A stretch of DNA of 11,244 nucleotides from a virus: the UHGV virus genome UHGV-0101776. One strand, 5' to 3'. The notes below the pieces were generated by a model. That model searched no databases. It worked only from the letters and a program-made list of their open reading frames with translations, and was not told where the DNA came from. A program made the position numbers and the translations under genes. Of this stretch, positions 779 through 9,867 are shown one piece after another (position 1 is the stretch's first letter; each line of letters begins with the position of its first letter).

Positions 779-2214
779 CAGAATCCTCCTTTCTTCTTGG
801 ATTGCGGTTCCTCGCGTTCACGGCGGCGCATTTCAGCGGACTGTTGGTCTGTGTCATAAATAGCGCCATTTGCCTGAATGCAATACACCGTGCCGGTATT
901 GCCATGACGATTGAGACGAAGGATTAGTTCGGTTTCACCAGGTGGAACACTGTCATCAAAAGCACCTTCACGATGGATCCCCACCCAATAATCGCAATCC
1001 TGTTCAATCTGCCCTGTATCTCGTGAGTCACTTGGTAATGGGCGTTTATTGGTTCTGCTTTCCAGTGCGCGGTTAAGCTGCGTCAGAAGCACAACAACGC
1101 AATCAAGCTCTTTGGCAAGGTTCTTCAGTCCTTTGGTGATCATGCCGTAAGCAAGGTCGTTGCGATCGGCCTTCTCAGCAGTCATTAGTGTCAGGTAATC
1201 GACCAGAATCATGCCAACACATCCTTTTTCTCGCTTGATTCGACGACTTTCGCTGACGATTTGAGCCAGAGATAATCCCGGCGTGTCGTCGATGTAAAGC
1301 AGGTCGATTTCACTCAAGCGATTGGCTGTTTCGATCGCCCTGTTGAAGTCACCATCGTAATCACCCTGATAGCCGTCATCAGCGTCATTTGTCGCCGGAA
1401 GGTAAAAAATATTCGGGTTAACACCTGACTTCTGTCCTACCAGTTTTTCCAGTATCTGGTCACCGGGCATTTCAAGGCTGAACATCAGAGCGGGCTTTTT
1501 CTCATGCACTGCGCAGTTGATTGCCATCTGGCTGTATAGCGTCGTTTTCCCCATCTTAGGGCGAGCGCCAATGACAAACAGAGAGCCTTTCACCAGACCT
1601 TTCGGTGACAGCATCCTGTCCAGCGATGGGATCCCTGTGCTCATTCCTCGTTGTTCGCCTGACGGGTCAAATCGCTTCTCAAGGTCGCTAACCCAGTCTT
1701 CCATGACCTCACCAAATGAGCGAAGGCCGCGACGCGATCCGGTTTTTGCATGGTCTGTCAGTTGCGTAAAAATCGCCTGAATAGCTTCGTACTTCTGCGT
1801 CGCAGTCATTCCGTTGCGGGAATAGAGCAATTCCGTCGCTTCAGTCATGCGGTTGATGGCGTAGCGTTCCATTGCGGTTTCACGAACCTGCATTGCATAG
1901 GCAACGATGTTTGCTGCGCTTGGCGTGTTCTTTGCGATCTCAGCGATATAAGCAAAACCGCCAACAGACGCCGTTAACGATTTACGCTCCAGTTCATCGA
2001 AAAGCGTCAGGCCATCTACTGGCTTTTGCTCCCGGTGCATTCTGGTTATTTCTTCGAAAAGGATTTTGTGTGGTCGGCTGTAAAATGAATCAGGCTTCAG
2101 CATCGCCAGAACTTTCTGGACGCGCTCACTGCTGTCATCATCCAGAAGCAATCCACCAATCACCGCCTGCTCTGCCTCGATGCTATGGGGCGGCGCATAA
2201 AAATTATCGGTCAT
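778..2214 (-). CDS. DnaB-family replicative DNA helicase (phage P22 gene 12-type)
   Basis: Walker A GARPKMGKTTL, Walker B-like ILVDYLTLM and the DnaB-like LLTQLNR motif. The ATG at 2214 overlaps the upstream initiator stop (ATGACCGATAA) with GAGG upstream. The ORF track's longer form starts at a GTG at 2229; the ATG is preferred. Confidence 0.88.
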   Translation of the reverse strand: MTDNFYAPPHSIEAEQAVIGGLLLDDDSSERVQKVLAMLKPDSFYSRPHKILFEEITRMHREQKPVDGLTLFDELERKSLTASVGGFAYIAEIAKNTPSAANIVAYAMQVRETAMERYAINRMTEATELLYSRNGMTATQKYEAIQAIFTQLTDHAKTGSRRGLRSFGEVMEDWVSDLEKRFDPSGEQRGMSTGIPSLDRMLSPKGLVKGSLFVIGARPKMGKTTLYSQMAINCAVHEKKPALMFSLEMPGDQILEKLVGQKSGVNPNIFYLPATNDADDGYQGDYDGDFNRAIETANRLSEIDLLYIDDTPGLSLAQIVSESRRIKREKGCVGMILVDYLTLMTAEKADRNDLAYGMITKGLKNLAKELDCVVVLLTQLNRALESRTNKRPLPSDSRDTGQIEQDCDYWVGIHREGAFDDSVPPGETELILRLNRHGNTGTVYCIQANGAIYDTDQQSAEMRRREREEPQSKKKGGF

Positions 2215-3094
2215 CGTGTTCACCCTCACGAACTTTCAGGTAGGTATTATCGTTAAGCAGGAAATCAAATCCCTTTTTGTGCCAGACGGTTCCGCGTTGA
2301 TGGTTTGGGCGCTCTTCGAACATCCATCGGCAATTTTCGCCAACGTAGCTCAAATAATTTCTCCAGTCCTGCATCGTGAACCCATGCCCGTCAAGTTGGC
2401 GTGTTATTACTCCGGCTTTGCGCCAGAACGTTCGGATCTGGTTTTTACGCTTGTCATTCAGTGCGCGGATTCTTGGCGCTTCAGGAAGGATTTCGTGGTA
2501 AGCATCGACAACATCCTGACAGCTGACGGAAGGTTTTTTCTTGTCAGACTTTTTGTCTGCTGTGGCACTCTCTAATACGTCAGTATTAGAGATATTATTT
2601 ATATTATTGTTTATGGACAACCGTTGGACAACCGTTGGACAATCTCCGCTGAGAGCCGCGCCATTACTGGTGTTTGCGTTGGACAACCGTTGGACAACCG
2701 TTGGACAATTTTTTGCCTGAAAATCGTCATATTTAACGATTGTAAACAGGCTAAATTTCTTCCCCATCGAGCAAATATTAAGCATCCCTTTCGACTCAAA
2801 AGTCCGTAATAAGCTCCGAACTTTGTTGTCGGGGATGAATGTTTCTCTGACCAGCGACGGGCGTCCAGTTATCATCTGACCGCGATCAACAGTTATCGGC
2901 CCGATATCCGTATTGACGACAGTAGATTCGTGATTAGCCTTGAGGATTAAGTGAAGCCAAAGATGTACTGCCTGAGAGTCCTTATAGAGCCTGCTGTCCA
3001 TAAACTGGCGGTGTATAGAGACATACCCCATACTGGATGCCTCCTGATGTTGTACAGGGTTATGCCTGTAATCAGCTAACTTAACGACGCCCAT
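2204..3094 (-). CDS. Phage replication initiator (lambda O-like role), origin embedded in the gene
   Basis: 296-aa ORF directly upstream of, and overlapping, the helicase gene. Strong SD AGGAG 6 nt before the ATG at 3094. Iteron repeats lie inside the central part of the gene (translated as the repeated CPTVVQRLS), the same arrangement as lambda O/ori. Conserved-looking C-terminal domain (TFWRKAG...GTVWHKKGFDFLLNDNTYLKV). Confidence 0.75.
   Translation of the reverse strand: MGVVKLADYRHNPVQHQEASSMGYVSIHRQFMDSRLYKDSQAVHLWLHLILKANHESTVVNTDIGPITVDRGQMITGRPSLVRETFIPDNKVRSLLRTFESKGMLNICSMGKKFSLFTIVKYDDFQAKNCPTVVQRLSNANTSNGAALSGDCPTVVQRLSINNNINNISNTDVLESATADKKSDKKKPSVSCQDVVDAYHEILPEAPRIRALNDKRKNQIRTFWRKAGVITRQLDGHGFTMQDWRNYLSYVGENCRWMFEERPNHQRGTVWHKKGFDFLLNDNTYLKVREGEHDDR
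2585..2708. repeat. Replication-origin iterons plus adjacent AT-rich region
   Basis: Six copies of GGACAA at 11-bp spacing (unit GGACAACCGTT) in two clusters of three, 2615-2642 and 2681-2708. The clusters are 66 bp apart (6 x 11), so all copies are in helical phase. An AT-rich stretch at 2585-2614 flanks them on the side downstream in gene orientation. Confidence 0.75.
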
Positions 3095-3253: not shown

Positions 3254-3330
3254 TGGATTGATCCAGTAATTCCCTCAGAATTGCATATCAATTTGCTTAG
3301 AGTCCCCGGCGGCCACCGGGGATTTTTTCT
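3254..3330 (+). ncRNA. oop: oop-like antisense RNA overlapping the cII 3' end, with intrinsic terminator
   Basis: The segment gatccagtaat...cctcagaa... ends in the hairpin ccccgg-cggcca-ccgggg plus attttttcttt (3305-3330). It closely resembles my recollection of lambda oop RNA in sequence, length (about 77 nt) and position antisense to the cII 3' end. CATAAT at 3240-3245 is a candidate -10 for Po. Confidence 0.6.
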
Positions 3331-3571
3331 TTGTGATTCCATCAAGCGCATACTTAAAAGCCCTACTAATCGGACTGATGTCTGATGCCATTCCGAAAGC
3401 ACACAAGACTGAAGCAATAAATCTCCAGTCCGTTCTGCTTATCTTCGATTCATGACAGCCAATCATCTTTGCCAGACCGCGCTGGGTAAGCGTTGACAGG
3501 TTGATGAGTAAATCTGTTTCTGCGCGATCAACGTCACGCTGGGATAGTTTGCTGTAACTTGTTTGTTCCAT
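3275..3571 (-). CDS. cII: CII-like transcriptional activator
   Basis: 98 aa, with clear similarity to lambda CII in the HTH and C-terminal parts (...KISRTDW...KKKSPVAAGDSKQIDMQF versus lambda ...QISRWKRDW...KKRPAATERSEQIQMEF). Sits immediately downstream of cro and nutR. Confidence 0.85.
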   Translation of the reverse strand: MEQTSYSKLSQRDVDRAETDLLINLSTLTQRGLAKMIGCHESKISRTDWRFIASVLCAFGMASDISPISRAFKYALDGITKKKSPVAAGDSKQIDMQF

Positions 3572-3709: not shown

Positions 3710-3943
3710 TTATGCTGCTGATGCTCTACGCGATACGAACACCAGATTTTCCTTTTTCACAGGTTTATAACCCGTGAAATTACGAGTGGCTTCTTCGATT
3801 GCATTCGCTTTATCTGGGGAAGCTCTTCGAAACCCATATGCAATCTGATCAAGATAGCCAACTGAAGTATTCGCTAATGCGGCGAGTCGCTTCCATTCCT
3901 CACTAGAAGCCTCTTTTCGCCAGCGTAGTAGTTCATTACTCAT
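3710..3943 (-). CDS. cro: Cro-like HTH repressor
   Basis: 77-aa ORF divergent from cI across the operator region, first gene of the operon containing cII. GGAGG SD 6 nt before the ATG. HTH-like segment WKRLAALANTSVGYLDQIAYG. Confidence 0.7.
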   Translation of the reverse strand: MSNELLRWRKEASSEEWKRLAALANTSVGYLDQIAYGFRRASPDKANAIEEATRNFTGYKPVKKENLVFVSRRASAA

Positions 3944-4056
3944 TAGTGCCTCCGTTTATCACACAGAGCAACTTTACCATTTTGATAAATAAACTGCAAT
4001 GGAGATTTATCAAAATGCGTATTTATCCATTTGCTAAATAGAGGGAGAATCGTGGG
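3944..4056. promoter_or_regulatory. OR operator region with divergent promoters (PR toward cro, PRM toward cI)
   Basis: Three ATTTATC-containing operator-like sites: reverse complement of 3973-3989 (TTTATCAAAATGGTAAA), 4006-4022 (TTTATCAAAATGCGTAT) and 4022-4038 (TTTATCCATTTGCTAAA). Candidate PR on the minus strand: -35 TTGCAG (reverse complement of 3994-3999), 17-bp spacer, -10 TAAAGT (reverse complement of 3971-3976). PRM was not confidently placed. Confidence 0.7.
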
Positions 4057-4761
4057 ATGGAAAACAAAGATATTCGCAAATCGAATCTGGCGTTTTTGCT
4101 AGATGAGCATAAAAAAATCGCGGGTAACACTAATGCAAGCTTTGCCGATAAGCTTGGAGTTAGCCCTTCTCAACTCACGCAAGTCTCCGGTGAAAAAAGC
4201 ACTCGAAACATAGGGGATAAACTAGCAAGAAAATTCGAAGCCGCACTTGGGTTACCTAATGGGTGGCTTGATTTGGTACATGATGTAACACCAATTGCAT
4301 CATGCTCAGATTCTTTAACTTTTGTCGGTCAGGTAAGAAAAGGGTTAGTGCGCGTGGTTGGTGAGGCAATTCTTGGTGTTGATGGTGCCATCGAGATGAC
4401 CGAAGAGCGCGATGGGTGGCTCAAGATTTATAGCGATGATCCAGATGCCTTTGGTCTTCGTGTGAAAGGAGACAGCATGTGGCCTAGAATAAAATCAGGA
4501 GAATATGTACTCATTGAGCCTAACACCAAAGTATTCCCGGGGGATGAGGTGTTTGTCAGAACCGTTGAAGGACACAACATGATCAAGATTCTTGGCTATG
4601 ACAGAGATGGAGAATACCAATTTACAAGCATCAACCAGGACCACAGGCCAATAACGTTACCTTATCATCAAGTAGCAAAGGTGGAGTATGTGGCTGGTAT
4701 TCTGAAGCAATCTCGTCATCTGGATGACATCGAGGCAAGGGAGTGGCTGAAAAGTTTGTGA
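4057..4761 (+). CDS. cI: CI-type prophage repressor (N-terminal HTH, C-terminal S24/LexA-like autopeptidase)
   Basis: 234 aa. N-terminal HTH region; C-terminal domain with the GDSMWP serine motif typical of LexA/CI self-cleaving repressors. SD GAGGGAG upstream. Divergent from cro. Confidence 0.88.
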   Translation: MENKDIRKSNLAFLLDEHKKIAGNTNASFADKLGVSPSQLTQVSGEKSTRNIGDKLARKFEAALGLPNGWLDLVHDVTPIASCSDSLTFVGQVRKGLVRVVGEAILGVDGAIEMTEERDGWLKIYSDDPDAFGLRVKGDSMWPRIKSGEYVLIEPNTKVFPGDEVFVRTVEGHNMIKILGYDRDGEYQFTSINQDHRPITLPYHQVAKVEYVAGILKQSRHLDDIEAREWLKSL

Positions 4762-4884
4762 CTTCAAGTACGCGACAAGCCCCGTCCTTCAGGGCGTGGA
4801 GGATGTCAAAATAACTTTAAATAACACACCACCAACATTTAACACATTGAATTAAAAAACCTACAATATTTGATGAGAGGCGTT

Positions 4885-5205
4885 ATGGAACCGGTCAAAA
4901 TTAAACCATCTGTGGATTATATTGAAACCTATGCGGACTTCGCTAGTTTTGCTCCACTACCGGGAGCGGAAAAAAATCTCATTTGTATACATTTTATCGC
5001 AAACAAGTCAATACCTGCGGTACTATCCCAAAATGATATACCAGATCAACCAGGTAGAGCGAATATGCAGATAGGCTCTGTAAATGAACTCAATCAGCAA
5101 TGCACTGTGATAATGCCAATGGCACAACTAAAGGCTCTTCAAGAGAATATAGTTCTTCTTTTCGAACAATTAGAGGCACAAAACTCTAATGGAGCGAAGT
5201 CGTAA
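4885..5205 (+). CDS. Hypothetical protein A of a two-gene moron in the rexA/rexB-equivalent slot
   Basis: ORF-track ORF 4870..5205. Preferred start is the ATG at 4885, with GAGG 5 nt upstream (alternative ATG at 4873). 107 aa with no recognisable motif. AT-rich. The stop overlaps the next start (TAATG). Confidence 0.5.
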   Translation: MEPVKIKPSVDYIETYADFASFAPLPGAEKNLICIHFIANKSIPAVLSQNDIPDQPGRANMQIGSVNELNQQCTVIMPMAQLKALQENIVLLFEQLEAQNSNGAKS

Positions 5206-5888
5206 TGCAACAACCGGAAGAAGTAGGTGATTTAACTATTACTTACAAAACATCAAGTATTGTTAAACCACTGCAAGTTTCCCTGAATAACGTTAATACT
5301 CGCGATTTCATGATGTTCATGGAAACAGCAAAAGGTAATCTGTTTTCTACGCCTATTTCCTCTTATTCACCAAAAAACATGGTGGATGATGCGACCAATT
5401 CCCAGCTAACTGCTACAATCGTAGATAAAGGAGGGGTTGCCGATTGTAAAGGACAATCTAATGTTATCCCACCGTACGAGGAAACTCCTATACAGGGAAC
5501 CGCAATGTCCGATTTGAGCAGAAACGAAATACAGGCACTTCTGAAGGCAAATAAAGCTGAAGTGGATGCAGTGGCCTCAAAAATGCAGGCTGATATGGCC
5601 AAATGGCGTGAACTAATGGCTTCAGATATAAAGGAGATGAAGCATTTAGTTGTTACTCAGCACGAACAAATCAACAGTCGTCTGGACATACAATCGAGTA
5701 GAATTGAGAGTGCCCTTGACTCCCAATCAAAAAAGATCGATGCAGCTCTTTCTGTTCAAGAGGCAAAGTTAGAAGGTAAGCTTAGTGATGTTAAGCTTGA
5801 TATAATCAAATGGGCCCTTGGCTTGCCAGCATTAGCATTTACTGTATATAAAATCTACGGATTGCTCTCTGGAGTCTCAACCCCCTAA
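5205..5888 (+). CDS. Hypothetical membrane-anchored coiled-coil protein B of the two-gene moron
   Basis: 227 aa. N-terminal globular part, a central heptad-like coiled-coil region (about residues 110-200) and a C-terminal hydrophobic helix IIKWALGLPALAFTVYKIYGLLSGV. Start overlaps the stop of protein A. Followed by an intrinsic terminator. Confidence 0.6.
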   Translation: MQQPEEVGDLTITYKTSSIVKPLQVSLNNVNTRDFMMFMETAKGNLFSTPISSYSPKNMVDDATNSQLTATIVDKGGVADCKGQSNVIPPYEETPIQGTAMSDLSRNEIQALLKANKAEVDAVASKMQADMAKWRELMASDIKEMKHLVVTQHEQINSRLDIQSSRIESALDSQSKKIDAALSVQEAKLEGKLSDVKLDIIKWALGLPALAFTVYKIYGLLSGVSTP

Positions 5889-5893
5889 TACAC

Positions 5894-5920
5894 ACCCGGC
5901 CTCAGTGCCGGGTTTTCTTT
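5894..5920 (+). terminator. Rho-independent terminator ending the cI-moron transcription unit
   Basis: Hairpin acccggc-ctcagt-gccgggt followed by tttcttt, immediately after the protein B stop and before OL. Confidence 0.7.
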
Positions 5921-6046
5921 GCCTCACGATCCCCACACCTAATAACACCATAACCAATTGTATTTGTTGAAAAATAAACAGATACAACTCACTAAAACGC
6001 GCAATTCTGATCCCCCTCAAGTCTCTTTATTCCTTCTGATAAATTC

Positions 6047-6145
6047 CTGCAATCAAATAAAAAACCATAATAATCAACAGGATATTTGAAAACTAAAACA
6101 ATTTATCATTTTGCTATTGCCATTAATTTATCATTTCGATAAAGT
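6047..6145 (+). promoter_or_regulatory. OL operator region with candidate PL promoter
   Basis: ATTTATC-containing operator-like sites at 6047-6054 (inverted), 6101-6116 (ATTTATCATTTTGCTA, near-identical to the OR site at 4021-4036) and the palindrome TTTATCATTTCGATAAA at 6127-6143. Candidate PL: -35 TTGCCA (6117-6122), 17-bp spacer, -10 TAAAGT (6140-6145). This is the same architecture as the candidate PR. Confidence 0.7.
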
Positions 6146-6191
6146 TAACTCATCAGCAGGACGCTGTAAGCCAAACGGAACAGACTGGCAG

Positions 6192-6237
6192 GCTCTTTAA
6201 ACAACGTCGAACACTCGACTACGTGGCTGAAAAGCCA
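6192..6237 (+). promoter_or_regulatory. nutL-like site (boxA plus boxB hairpin)
   Basis: boxA-like GCTCTTTAA at 6192-6200 and, about 23 nt downstream, the hairpin UGGCU-GAAA-AGCCA (6224-6237). The architecture and boxA-boxB spacing match the nutR candidate. Confidence 0.55.
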
Positions 6238-6260
6238 GATCACCCAACCACATAAGCTGT

Positions 6261-6313
6261 GGGATGCAATGCCGAAGCAACTCTCTCAGGAGTAGCTTCG
6301 GGATTGCATCGCC
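6261..6313 (+). promoter_or_regulatory. Long imperfect hairpin in the N leader (candidate RNase III processing or translation-control element)
   Basis: Arms gggatgcaatgccgaagc (6261-6278) and gcttcgggattgcatcgcc (6295-6313) pair over about 17 bp with one mismatch and one bulge, enclosing a 16-nt loop. Located between nutL and the N SD (GGGAGG at 6325-6330). Confidence 0.45.
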
Positions 6314-6335
6314 AGAGTTTATTCGGGAGGAATCC

Positions 6336-6608
6336 ATGTCCAGAAAAACAGAATTTAAAGGAACCGCAGCTTCTCGCCGTAGAGAGCGTCGCGCAAATCT
6401 GCAAAGTCAGGAGGCGATCAGCTCCGACAAGCTACACAGGCCAACCCCTTCACGAGTGGTCTTGCAATGCAAGCGCAAACCAGCAATGAGAGCAGAAGTG
6501 ATAACTCTGACAACGTTGACCAGAAAATATGAAGGTTCAACTTGTCTTCCGAACGTAGCTCTTTACGCGGCAGGCTACCGGAAATCAAAACAACTGACGG
6601 CGAGATGA
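6336..6608 (+). CDS. N: N-like transcription antitermination protein
   Basis: 90 aa. N-terminal arginine-rich motif ASRRRERRANLQ, matching the RRRERRA of the lambda N ARM. Positioned downstream of PL/nutL with a leader of about 185 nt. The ORF-track frame 6264..6608 extends upstream; the ATG at 6336 has the SD. Confidence 0.7.
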   Translation: MSRKTEFKGTAASRRRERRANLQSQEAISSDKLHRPTPSRVVLQCKRKPAMRAEVITLTTLTRKYEGSTCLPNVALYAAGYRKSKQLTAR

Positions 6609-6624
6609 TAAATTCATTTGCTAA

Positions 6625-7206
6625 TTACTTGTTTTTGCCATGCTTATCCTGAGCGATAAGTTCATCCATAAGGCTGTCTGCCTTCCCGGCAAACCGAATG
6701 TAGCACTCATTTCTATAGCGTTCCGGGATAACAAAACGGTCGATTTCAGGATATCCAGTAGCAGAAGGTATCCGAATAAGAAGCCCTTTTTCGAGCAATG
6801 AGATTGCTTCAGGGCTTCCCTTTTCTGTCTTTAGCTGGTTATTCGCGGCTACAGCGAATGCCAAATACGCTCTTTCTCCAAGAGTTAACGAATCAAACAA
6901 ATCTTGCACATATTTTTCTTCTTTAGATTTGCGCTTCTGAGCAGCGGATACCTCAATTCTTTCAGTCACAGCGTGATAAGCGGAATTAACAACACCGTTA
7001 AGCACATAGCTAACGCAGAACAACAGGATGTAATACATCCAATAATAAGGAAGGATTTCTGGATTATGCAGGTTTATCCATTCTTTTACGCTTACCGGCA
7101 TAACAATAATCAATATGATCAGGATGATTAGCATATGAATCAACTGTTTAAGTGTCATTCCTTGCAGGAAAAAATGCATTAGTTCCTGCCACCATGAGTT
7201 GTTCAT
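6625..7206 (-). CDS. sieB: Superinfection exclusion protein B (SieB-like) membrane protein
   Basis: 193 aa with two N-terminal hydrophobic helices (LIHMLIILIILIIVMPV, YYWMYYILLFCVSYVL). Transcribed opposite to N, in the same relative position as lambda sieB. Identity is from recollection of the family. Confidence 0.65.
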   Translation of the reverse strand: MNNSWWQELMHFFLQGMTLKQLIHMLIILIILIIVMPVSVKEWINLHNPEILPYYWMYYILLFCVSYVLNGVVNSAYHAVTERIEVSAAQKRKSKEEKYVQDLFDSLTLGERAYLAFAVAANNQLKTEKGSPEAISLLEKGLLIRIPSATGYPEIDRFVIPERYRNECYIRFAGKADSLMDELIAQDKHGKNK

Positions 7207-7349: not shown

Positions 7350-7436
7350 ATGGAAGAAGAATTTGAAGAGTTCGAAGAGCATCCTCAGGATGTGATGGAA
7401 CAATACCAGGACTATCCGTATGACTACGACTATTGA
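7350..7436 (+). CDS. Small acidic ORF (28 aa)
   Basis: Product MEEEFEEFEEHPQDVMEQYQDYPYDYDY. SD-like AAGGTGA 6 nt upstream. Overlaps the ral start by 17 nt. Possibly equivalent to the small ORF annotated near ral in lambda (uncertain). Confidence 0.4.
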   Translation: MEEEFEEFEEHPQDVMEQYQDYPYDYDY

Positions 7437-7620
7437 TAAAAATCAATGGTGTGGACAATTCAAGCGATGCAATGGATGCAAGCTGCAATCGGAATGCATG
7501 GTTAAGCCTGAAGAAATGTTTCCTGTAATGGAAGATGGGAAATATGTCGATAAATGGGCAATACGAACGACGGCAATGATTGCCAGAGAACTTGGTAAAC
7601 AGAACAACAAGGCTGCCTAA
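7420..7620 (+). CDS. ral: Ral-like restriction alleviation protein
   Basis: 66 aa, MTTTIDKNQWCGQFKRCNGCKLQSECMVKPEEMFPVMEDGKYVDKWAIRTTAMIARELGKQNNKAA. Matches my recollection of lambda Ral in length and sequence. Sits in the PL operon between N/sieB and cIII. Confidence 0.6.
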   Translation: MTTTIDKNQWCGQFKRCNGCKLQSECMVKPEEMFPVMEDGKYVDKWAIRTTAMIARELGKQNNKAA

Positions 7621-9570: not shown

Positions 9571-9867
9571 ATGCCAGCGCCTCTGTATGGTGCGGATGAC
9601 CCGCGCAACTGCTCCGGTAGCTCCAAGGCGGAGGTGCTGGAGAATATCAAAAACAATTTCGACGCGTTTCTTGCTCTGACACCAGAAACAAAAGCAGAAC
9701 GGATGTACCGACGCGATATACAACTCGCGCTAAAACAGGAGAAGGACCGAACAAACGAAACAGCAATGAGACCGTTGCGAAAAGCGACAATAGACAAATT
9801 CCCTGAATATATCGACCCGCGCCTGCGTAATTACCGCTCACGCTATGGCGCTATCAGTAATGACTGA
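9571..9867 (+). CDS. Hypothetical protein (98 aa)
   Basis: Intact ORF co-oriented in the PL operon. AAGG upstream of the ATG. No recognisable motif. Confidence 0.5.

Follow-up and report, generated by a model that had tools for sequence, protein, structure and literature searches.

In phage lambda, the interval between the repressor gene cI and the operators and promoter OL/PL holds rexA and rexB, which are followed by the terminator tImm. RexA has ~280 amino acids (aa) and RexB is a polytopic protein with four transmembrane (TM) segments; the two proteins also modulate the lysogenic switch and have been reported to assist the lysogenic-to-lytic transition. The rexAB pair is an exclusion system expressed in lysogens, and RexB has been reported to be an ion channel (PMC8585504). 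The interval from cI to N is a moron hotspot that is transcribed from the cI promoter and is home to both rexAB and bstA, the latter being an abortive infection (Abi) gene of the BTP1 prophage that directly follows cI in lambdoid and P22-like prophages and is expressed in lysogens from the cI promoter (PMC8585504, PMC7067206). Genes lodged in this classic rexAB/bstA site are among the few that a silent prophage expresses. Here we analyze an anonymous pair of open reading frames (ORFs), hereafter gene A and gene B, which occupies the corresponding position in the virus genome UHGV-0101776, a stretch of 11,244 nucleotides (hereafter the window) that represents the immunity and early region of a lambdoid Escherichia coli prophage. 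We tentatively read the A-B cassette as a Rex-like module for heterotypic phage exclusion at the inner membrane, expressed in lysogens; this reading is preferred mainly because a putative constant effector is found with swappable partners in a hotspot rich in defence genes.

The ORFs are not new in themselves, since they are annotated by NCBI, B is clustered in PHROGs and relatives have long been present in the sequences of HK97 and HK542. The cassette is also of a known kind, that of lysogen-expressed two-gene morons in the cI-N hotspot, while its protein families and modular architecture are uncharacterised: the searchable literature yielded no functional study of DUF1640 in phage defence, of the WP accessions, of phrog_14825, of HK97 gp48/gp49 or of the HK542/HK244 genes. 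What was an anonymous pair of ORFs now becomes a defined family, with a membrane-anchored core (neck, stalk and anchor) that recurs in this slot across Enterobacterales.

The slot between cI and N

The following elements define the slot (coordinates are those of the window).

4057-4761, + strand: cI-type repressor of the LexA/S24 type (Peptidase_S24 E 4.1e-16; phrog_4 E 7.5e-38)
4767-5893, + strand: cassette as exchangeable module, between the left and right homology breakpoints with phage AU5Stx1
4839-4867, + strand: sigma-70 promoter-like site, TTAACA-17-TACAAT, 10/12 consensus positions
4885-5205, + strand: gene A, soluble, acidic protein of 106 aa, orphan family
5205-5888, + strand: gene B, predicted tail-anchored coiled-coil protein of 227 aa, distantly DUF1640/CCDC90-like
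5894-5920, + strand: intrinsic terminator, with a hairpin at 5894-5913 (7-bp stem with 6 GC pairs) followed by TTTCTTT
6095-6164, + strand: OL operators and PL, palindrome TTTATCATTTCGATAAA, read from the sequence
6336-6608, + strand: N antiterminator (PF25694 N_peptide E 1.6e-32), far border of the slot

The succession of cI, two ORFs, a terminator, OL/PL and N thus has exactly the lambda geometry of cI-rexA-rexB-tImm-OL/PL-N. An earlier reading of the DNA letters and their ORFs, hereafter the sequence-only reading, had placed the cassette in a slot equivalent to that of rexAB, and this placement is borne out by the gene order, by the location of A and B on the cI strand, by the hairpin and by the OL and N matches. 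The terminator is the counterpart of lambda tImm, the equivalent element being annotated Timm in HK542, and is also present in H-19B-type phages that lack the cassette. Positions 5894-6164 are 85-88% identical to the immunity region of H-19B/ST2-8624, in which OL1-3 are annotated, and a promoter scan located a PL-like TTGCCA-17-TAAAGT at 6117-6145.

Both genes are called by PGAP (NCBI) at identical coordinates in every E. coli genome inspected. From its ATG at 4885 gene A encodes 106 aa plus the stop, one residue fewer than the 107 first reported, whereas an alternative TTG start at 4870 would give 111 aa (4870..5205). The stop codon of A and the start codon of B share one base (TAATG at 5203-5207), and Shine-Dalgarno-like sequences precede A (GAGAGG, 4875-4880) and B (GGAG, 5191-5194); the two genes are translationally coupled, as the sequence-only reading had proposed. 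No terminator-like site was found in the 123 nt that separate cI from A, where RNA structure did not exceed chance expectation (z = -0.08). As A and B lie behind cI, presumed to be the first gene of the lysogenic operon, with no terminator in between, and as genes in this slot are documented to behave in this way (PMC7067206, PMC8585504), the two are probably expressed in lysogens by read-through from cI (PRM/PRE). The site at 4839-4867 is the best sigma-70-like match within 3900-6700, a region in which the total of such sites is not above shuffled expectation, and provides a lead to a possible cassette-internal promoter placed like lambda pLit.

The GC content of A and B together is 0.406, as compared with 0.445 for cI, 0.506 for dnaB and 0.447 for the whole window. 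The cassette is therefore more AT-rich than cI and dnaB, as the sequence-only reading had stressed, but the difference is modest and comparable or lower values are found in sieB (0.407) and in an HNH ORF (0.348) of the same window. With regard to the moron criteria of own promoter, own terminator and deviant GC, the cassette presents the 10/12 site, a terminator in common with cassette-less phages and 0.406 versus 0.447.

Proteins A and B and their relatives

Relatives of B number 34 among 5.8 billion proteins and come from Klebsiella, Yersinia, Serratia and Providencia, several of them being named 'DUF1640 domain-containing protein' or 'CCDC90 family protein' by NCBI. For A, a profile search retrieved 20 relatives, and 17 representative clusters were found among 1.84 billion proteins; all are stand-alone proteins of ~90-116 aa. 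When the ORFs called in 38 sequences were searched with the profiles of A and B, every locus with a full-length B (at least 214 aa) had an A homologue directly upstream, overlapping or no more than 12 nt away. This adjacency was seen in E. coli, Klebsiella, Yersinia, Providencia and metagenome or IMG/VR contigs, and in nearly all loci with full-length B the pair lay immediately after an S24 repressor and ahead of genes of the PL operon, a conservation at the cI-N junction of lambdoid prophages that the sequence-only reading had left to be checked. ORF length and order are kept in more than 25 loci. In all inter-genus comparisons of A and B, pN ranged from 0.23 to 0.48 against a saturated pS of 0.67-0.92, and the pairwise distances of A correlated with those of B (r = 0.89, from non-independent pairs), indicating that both are real, selected and co-inherited proteins. 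A and B are genuine genes under purifying selection.

The pairing extends to remote relatives. The small protein of the Providencia locus is distantly homologous to A (hhalign 94.8%, E 4.9e-8), and a distant pair, formed by P0070 and a B-like protein of 313 aa with the same neck motif, was found at another moron site, beside Arc/Ant and tail genes; A and B therefore travel together independently of cI. The genes that precede this distant pair (667-1395 and 1-572 in L015; 3-1262 and 1345-2076 in L016) encode, besides a large protein lacking annotation, a tRNA_anti-like protein with an OB fold (PF12869 E 1e-9), and may be further morons of the same island.

Protein B was modelled with AlphaFold2 (AF2) as a monomer from an alignment of 24 sequences, with an overall predicted local distance difference test (pLDDT) of 72.7. 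Its parts are listed below.

5223-5342, + strand: head, residues 7-46, beta-beta-alpha (AF2 pLDDT 80-85)
5346-5501, + strand: linker, residues 48-99, variable, predicted disordered (pLDDT <50), unconserved in alignments
5505-5615, + strand: neck motif MSDLSRNEIQALLKANKAEVDAVASKMQADMAKWREL, residues 101-137, hallmark of the entire B superfamily
5799-5870, + strand: hydrophobic anchor, residues 199-222, DIIKWALGLPALAFTVYKIYGLLS, followed by 5 residues

After the linker, the model consists of a single helix spanning residues 103-222, which includes the hydrophobic C-terminal segment and exceeds a pLDDT of 90 over residues 110-180. The core of the neck, MSDLSRNEIQALLKANKAEVDAVASKMQADMAKWRE, is conserved even in the most distant relatives, with E108, A111, L113, K117, E119, A124 and A132 invariant among the proteins of E. 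coli, Yersinia, Providencia, HK97 (gp48) and HK542 (c104), and 11 residues of the anchor are invariant among 24 homologues. Neck and anchor are thus the most constrained parts of the protein, a pattern which suggests that they do more than tether it. The sequence-only reading had described B as a globular N-terminal part with an extended coiled coil and one C-terminal TM anchor; head, helix and C-terminal hydrophobic segment are recovered in the model, but the head comprises only ~40 residues and the TM segment is marginal, its Kyte-Doolittle maximum over 19 residues being 1.36 with lysines among its residues. Divergent B relatives have a classical TM segment at the equivalent position, and window B is presumed to insert in the membrane.

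B can be compared with the proteins of the DUF1640 family, which comprises membrane proteins of prokaryotes and organelles whose C-terminal stalk has the beta-layer motif [aliphatic]-A-T-K-[polar]-[DE] at its start (PMC4786415). B matches PF07798 (CCDC90-like/DUF1640) with E 3.4e-6 and 27.5 bits, under the gathering score of 33.5, the alignment pairing residues 106-214 with profile positions 63-167 of 175; all 24 B homologues match the same profile, all of them below threshold (best E 7.3e-7). At the place of the motif, residues 114-119 of B read KANKAE, a near-invariant sequence across the B family, in which A, K and E agree whereas N replaces T and K replaces the aliphatic residue. As in MCUR1 and CCDC90B, a variable head, a neck, a stalk and a C-terminal anchor are predicted for B; its head is unrelated to theirs, however, and sub-threshold scores of this kind can be inflated by coiled-coil composition. 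B probably works like DUF1640 proteins and is distantly related to them, and membership of the family is not claimed. The protein belongs to phrog_14825 (E 3.6e-128), a PHROGs entry without assigned function, while sequence-profile searches of the PDB returned nothing meaningful and Foldseek of the model yielded nothing above noise, which is unsurprising for one long helix. The view that the pair is undescribed and has no recognisable motif consequently holds for A, which has no family match, but has to be amended for B, which is DUF1640/CCDC90-like and already so named by NCBI. Analogies of B with XhlA or other holin-like proteins and with DUF883 (ElaB/YqjD) were dropped, neither being listed by a Pfam scan at E <= 1; the spanin analogy was dropped as well, being absent from the same scan and having the reverse topology, with an N-terminal TM segment and a periplasmic coil.

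Protein A is predicted to be soluble and acidic (pI 4.75). Its AF2 model (15 sequences, pLDDT 84.6) has three long beta-strands and an amphipathic C-terminal helix at residues 79-101. Searches against Pfam (E <= 1), PHROGs, NCBIfam, PADLOC and PDB sequences gave no match, and Foldseek against BFVD retrieved two uncharacterised phage proteins with E ~2e-3. The fold recalls that of COMM domains, which are obligate dimers assembling into rings and of which prokaryotic COMMD-like representatives have recently been described, with their function unassigned (PMC13392464). The likeness amounts to 5-13% identity over a simple predicted fold, there being no Pfam sequence match at E <= 1 and, in the AF2 model, no helical N-terminal HN domain; we take it as a hint on oligomerisation of A and not as a family assignment. 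Within the A family Pro44 is invariant and Cys73 near-invariant, the latter lying mostly within His-Glu-Cys, where the window protein has Gln-Gln-Cys (71-73); the region of Cys73 could bind a metal or form a disulphide bond at the interface of an A dimer. Homology between A and the head of B was considered and rejected, at an hhalign probability of 0.25%.

The B core reaches beyond the cassettes of window type. A tblastn search of 50,697 phage records with A and B of the window gave zero matches, and phage relatives surfaced only with the divergent family members P0030 and P0020 as queries. These retrieved HK97 gp48 (40.6% identity to the Providencia protein, E 2e-18) and proteins of HK225, Lambdavirus PDP110P1, HK542/HK244 (both of lambda immunity) and two Klebsiella phages. 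The gene order is cI(gp50)-gp49(88 aa)-gp48(216 aa)-OL-N(gp47) in HK97 and cI-c105(144 aa)-c104(206 aa)-Timm-OL in HK542, where the genes take the rexAB position next to lambda's own immunity. The pairs gp49/gp48 of HK97 (a type also present in HK225 and Lambdavirus PDP110P1) and c105/c104 of HK542/HK244 thus have the same slot, strand and order as A-B, the gene of a small protein preceding that of a tail-anchored coiled-coil protein; the two genes overlap or abut each other and end at tImm. The B profile aligned with gp48 at an hhalign probability of 92.6% (E 4.7e-7; HMM score 34.6 bits) and with c104 at 97% (E 9.4e-11; HMM score 54.4 bits), the likeness to window B being limited to the neck and early stalk. 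In contrast to window B, gp48 and c104 are without the beta-beta-alpha head and have a clear TM segment followed by a Pro/Gln-rich periplasmic tail. The resemblance of gp49 to the A profile is weak (hhalign 32%, E 4.8e-4, 10.5 bits), and c105 is not A-like but belongs to another partner family.

The beta-beta-alpha head of B was found only with an upstream partner of the A family, although A-partnered loci without it exist (L030, L033, L034 and HK97). Headless variants of B, of 165-191 aa, accompany partners of three types. The first is the distant A-like type of ~99 aa (hhalign 77%, E 2e-5); the second is a family of 143/144 aa, including the partners at 4573-5004 in L010 and at 1472-1906 in L039 (HK542), the former sharing 39.9% identity with HK542 c105 (E 1.7e-37); and the third is a 118-aa CxxC...CxxC family found at 3008-3364 in L035 and 2990-3346 in L032, with 53.8% identity between the two loci. 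Neither the 143/144-aa nor the 118-aa family has a match in Pfam or PADLOC, and a possible equivalence of the 143-aa partner of headless B with A and the B head combined was considered and rejected. Sequence comparison thus shows one constant, membrane-anchored B core combined with small partners from three or more families, and in every case the site is a moron slot of a prophage.

These findings bear on the possibility that the cassette is a moron for lysogenic conversion or host physiology, in which B would serve as a membrane scaffold and use A or its own head to recruit or sequester a host factor, much as proteins of the MCUR1 family scaffold membrane complexes, and would thereby benefit stress tolerance, envelope homeostasis or colonisation. 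DUF1640/CCDC90-like relatives (MCUR1/CCDC90B) are described as scaffolds with variable heads (PMC4786415), A and B contain no toxin or nuclease domain, and lambda lysogens do express the non-defence genes lom and bor (PMC7067206). However, the analogy with scaffolds is weakened by the sub-threshold Pfam match, the family is tightly confined to prophage moron slots, notably the cI-N hotspot, and an exchange of partners on an otherwise constant core is seen more typically in systems engaged in an arms race. We consider such a role unlikely.

A Pro/Gln-rich tail after the TM segment is present in many B-like proteins, including HK97 gp48 (2261-2911 in L038), the protein at 4302-5243 in L015, P0030 and the Providencia protein, with a shared patch such as QPTVIYVQQP or PAPIIIQVPTQQP. 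Two sub-architectures of B are suggested, one with a periplasmic tail and the other with a cytoplasmic head. The tails of HK97 gp48, Providencia and L015 could reach the periplasm, and B, a predicted membrane-anchored protein presumably expressed in lysogens, might, at or near the site of injection, together with A obstruct the incoming channel of tape-measure or ejection proteins, or the DNA itself, so that genome entry is blocked and the cell survives. This superinfection exclusion would be a sub-variant of the defence reading, comparable to HK97 gp15, P22 SieA and T4 Imm, and single-pass exclusion proteins are known (PMC3594210). Window B, however, extends only 5 residues past its anchor and would thus be almost wholly cytoplasmic, known entry blockers need no soluble partner, and the same prophage already has sieB next door; a block of entry is accordingly quite improbable as the function of the window cassette.

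Mobility and neighbourhood of the cassette

The Stx1 phage AU5Stx1 has a cI gene 97.5% identical in DNA to that of the window, yet no A-B cassette. Homology between the two stops at 4766, 5 nt past the cI stop, and resumes at 5894, in the terminator stem; the 1127-bp A-B segment is replaced by 386 bp with an ORF of 47 aa. Presence or absence between homologous phages, which defines morons in the sense of Juhala and Hendrix (PMC3594210), is thus seen between the same cI and the same terminator/OL. Among 5426 complete E. coli genomes, 40 (0.7%) carry the A-B DNA, in single copy, on the chromosome and at 99.7% identity or more. Strain 50579417 and four IMG/VR contigs have a 100% identical cassette behind a different N-terminal DNA-binding domain of cI and a different cro, with a recombination breakpoint inside cI at ~4334 in the comparison with this strain, and in Yersinia the pair lies behind two different repressors. 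The horizontal acquisition that the sequence-only reading had deduced from base composition is therefore supported on other grounds, namely presence or absence behind the same cI and identity behind different immunity types.

The same observations are relevant to whether A and B regulate the lysis-lysogeny decision or induction of their own prophage, for instance by tethering or titrating a component of the switch or a host protease at the membrane. Such a role would be in line with the co-operonic arrangement with cI in nearly all loci, with the linkage of the E. coli cassette to the C-terminal domain of cI (breakpoint ~4334) and with the precedent of RexA/RexB, which have been reported to assist the lysogenic-to-lytic transition. 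Nevertheless, the pair is found behind unrelated repressors, with which a switch-specific partner should co-vary, it also occurs away from cI, beside Arc/Ant and tail genes, and AU5Stx1 manages with the same cI and no cassette. Because the cassette is independent of repressor type and is found away from cI, regulation of the switch is the least probable of the alternatives considered here.

The remaining annotated features of the window are as follows.

85-696, - strand: HNH_3 + AP2 homing-endonuclease-like ORF, 203 aa (GC 0.348, GC3 0.255)
778-2229, - strand: DnaB-type helicase
2204-3094, - strand: O-like replication gene
3275-3571, - strand: cII
3710-3943, - strand: cro
6625-7206, - strand: sieB (PF14163 E 7e-25; phrog_1301 E 1.5e-122)
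7420-7620, + strand: ral, antirestriction (PF11058 E 1.6e-48)
9571-9867, + strand: P22 Abc2-like anti-RecBCD gene (PF11043 E 1.5e-35)

Directly past N lies sieB, so that a known exclusion gene neighbours the candidate cassette in the same prophage, while two other prophages with the same cassette (L001 and L002) have no sieB at the corresponding spot. Beyond sieB follow ral and genes for recombination and anti-RecBCD functions; the counter-defence genes ral and Abc2-like of the PL operon thus lie downstream of a candidate defence cassette. The HNH_3 + AP2 ORF has the lowest GC in the window and sits beside the replication genes, being likely a selfish insertion. Just upstream of N, at ~6139-6358 (+ strand, nutL/leader), PGAP annotates a pseudogene ('frameshifted hypothetical protein') in carrier genomes, a call that probably arises as an artefact of annotation across the PL leader.

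Possible function and comparison with known systems

In the exclusion reading introduced above, the cassette would be a two-gene moron of the repressor operon, transcribed by read-through from PRM/PRE and possibly from its own promoter, with transcription stopping at the tImm-like terminator. B would be tail-anchored in the inner membrane, its DUF1640-like stalk holding a small head on a flexible linker in the cytoplasm, and A would be a small soluble partner, probably dimeric given its COMM-like fold, produced in a fixed ratio to B through coupling. Most likely A docks on B, a contact that we infer because the genes are coupled and strictly adjacent and the B head is seen only with partners of the A family. 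Either A or the B head would be the part conferring specificity or acting as sensor, and the neck, stalk and anchor of B would provide the shared membrane-bound effector or scaffold, with exclusion taking place on the cytoplasmic side of the inner membrane. A broader proposal is more doubtful, namely that the cassettes make up a new and widespread family of two-component exclusion or Abi systems of prophages in the rexAB slot, combining a DUF1640-like, probably trimeric effector with interchangeable sensors or adaptors (COMM-like A, the 143-aa family and the Zn-ribbon-like 118-aa family).

Several points weigh against a role in exclusion. No enzymatic, toxin, pore-forming or multi-pass channel domain was found in A or B, and in PADLOC-DB v2.0.0 (2023) A, B and the variant partners had only weak coiled-coil matches (HEC-07, E 0.009; LeoA, E 4.6e-5 for the Providencia variant). 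The hydrophobic segment of B is marginal and contains lysines, and the characterised DUF1640 relatives, MCUR1 and CCDC90B, are scaffolds and not pores. The cassette is rare in complete E. coli genomes, and B of the window type is absent from the phage records searched. Moreover, a position in the cI operon is no proof of defence, RexA and RexB themselves having an additional role in the lysogenic switch. Lambda lysogens express lom and bor as well (PMC7067206).

The abortive-infection or exclusion role suggested by the sequence-only reading is deduced from position, and candidates singled out in this way are common; the present cassette is a well-defined and testable one. Should the broader proposal of a new exclusion or Abi family be true, prokaryotic MCUR1/DUF1640-like proteins would gain their first function, as would a minimal COMM-like fold in bacteria; should there be no defence role, a conserved membrane module specific to lysogens would still require explanation. 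The presence of the B core in the model phage HK97 offers a tractable laboratory member of the family (gp49/gp48).

Of the systems described for this slot, BstA consists of one large protein, associated with DNA and accompanied by the self-immunity element aba, and no similarity to A or B was detected. The statement of the sequence-only reading that neither protein resembles RexA/RexB or a known defence protein agrees with the lack of any Rex match in Pfam, PHROG, NCBIfam and PADLOC. Instead of the polytopic, channel-like organisation of RexB, B is predicted to have just one hydrophobic segment, at its C-terminus, and an extended coiled coil in the cytoplasm; A, with its 106 aa, is much smaller than RexA. 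What the A-B cassette shares with lambda rexAB is the location between cI and tImm, the presence of two genes on the cI strand and the combination of one soluble with one membrane protein.

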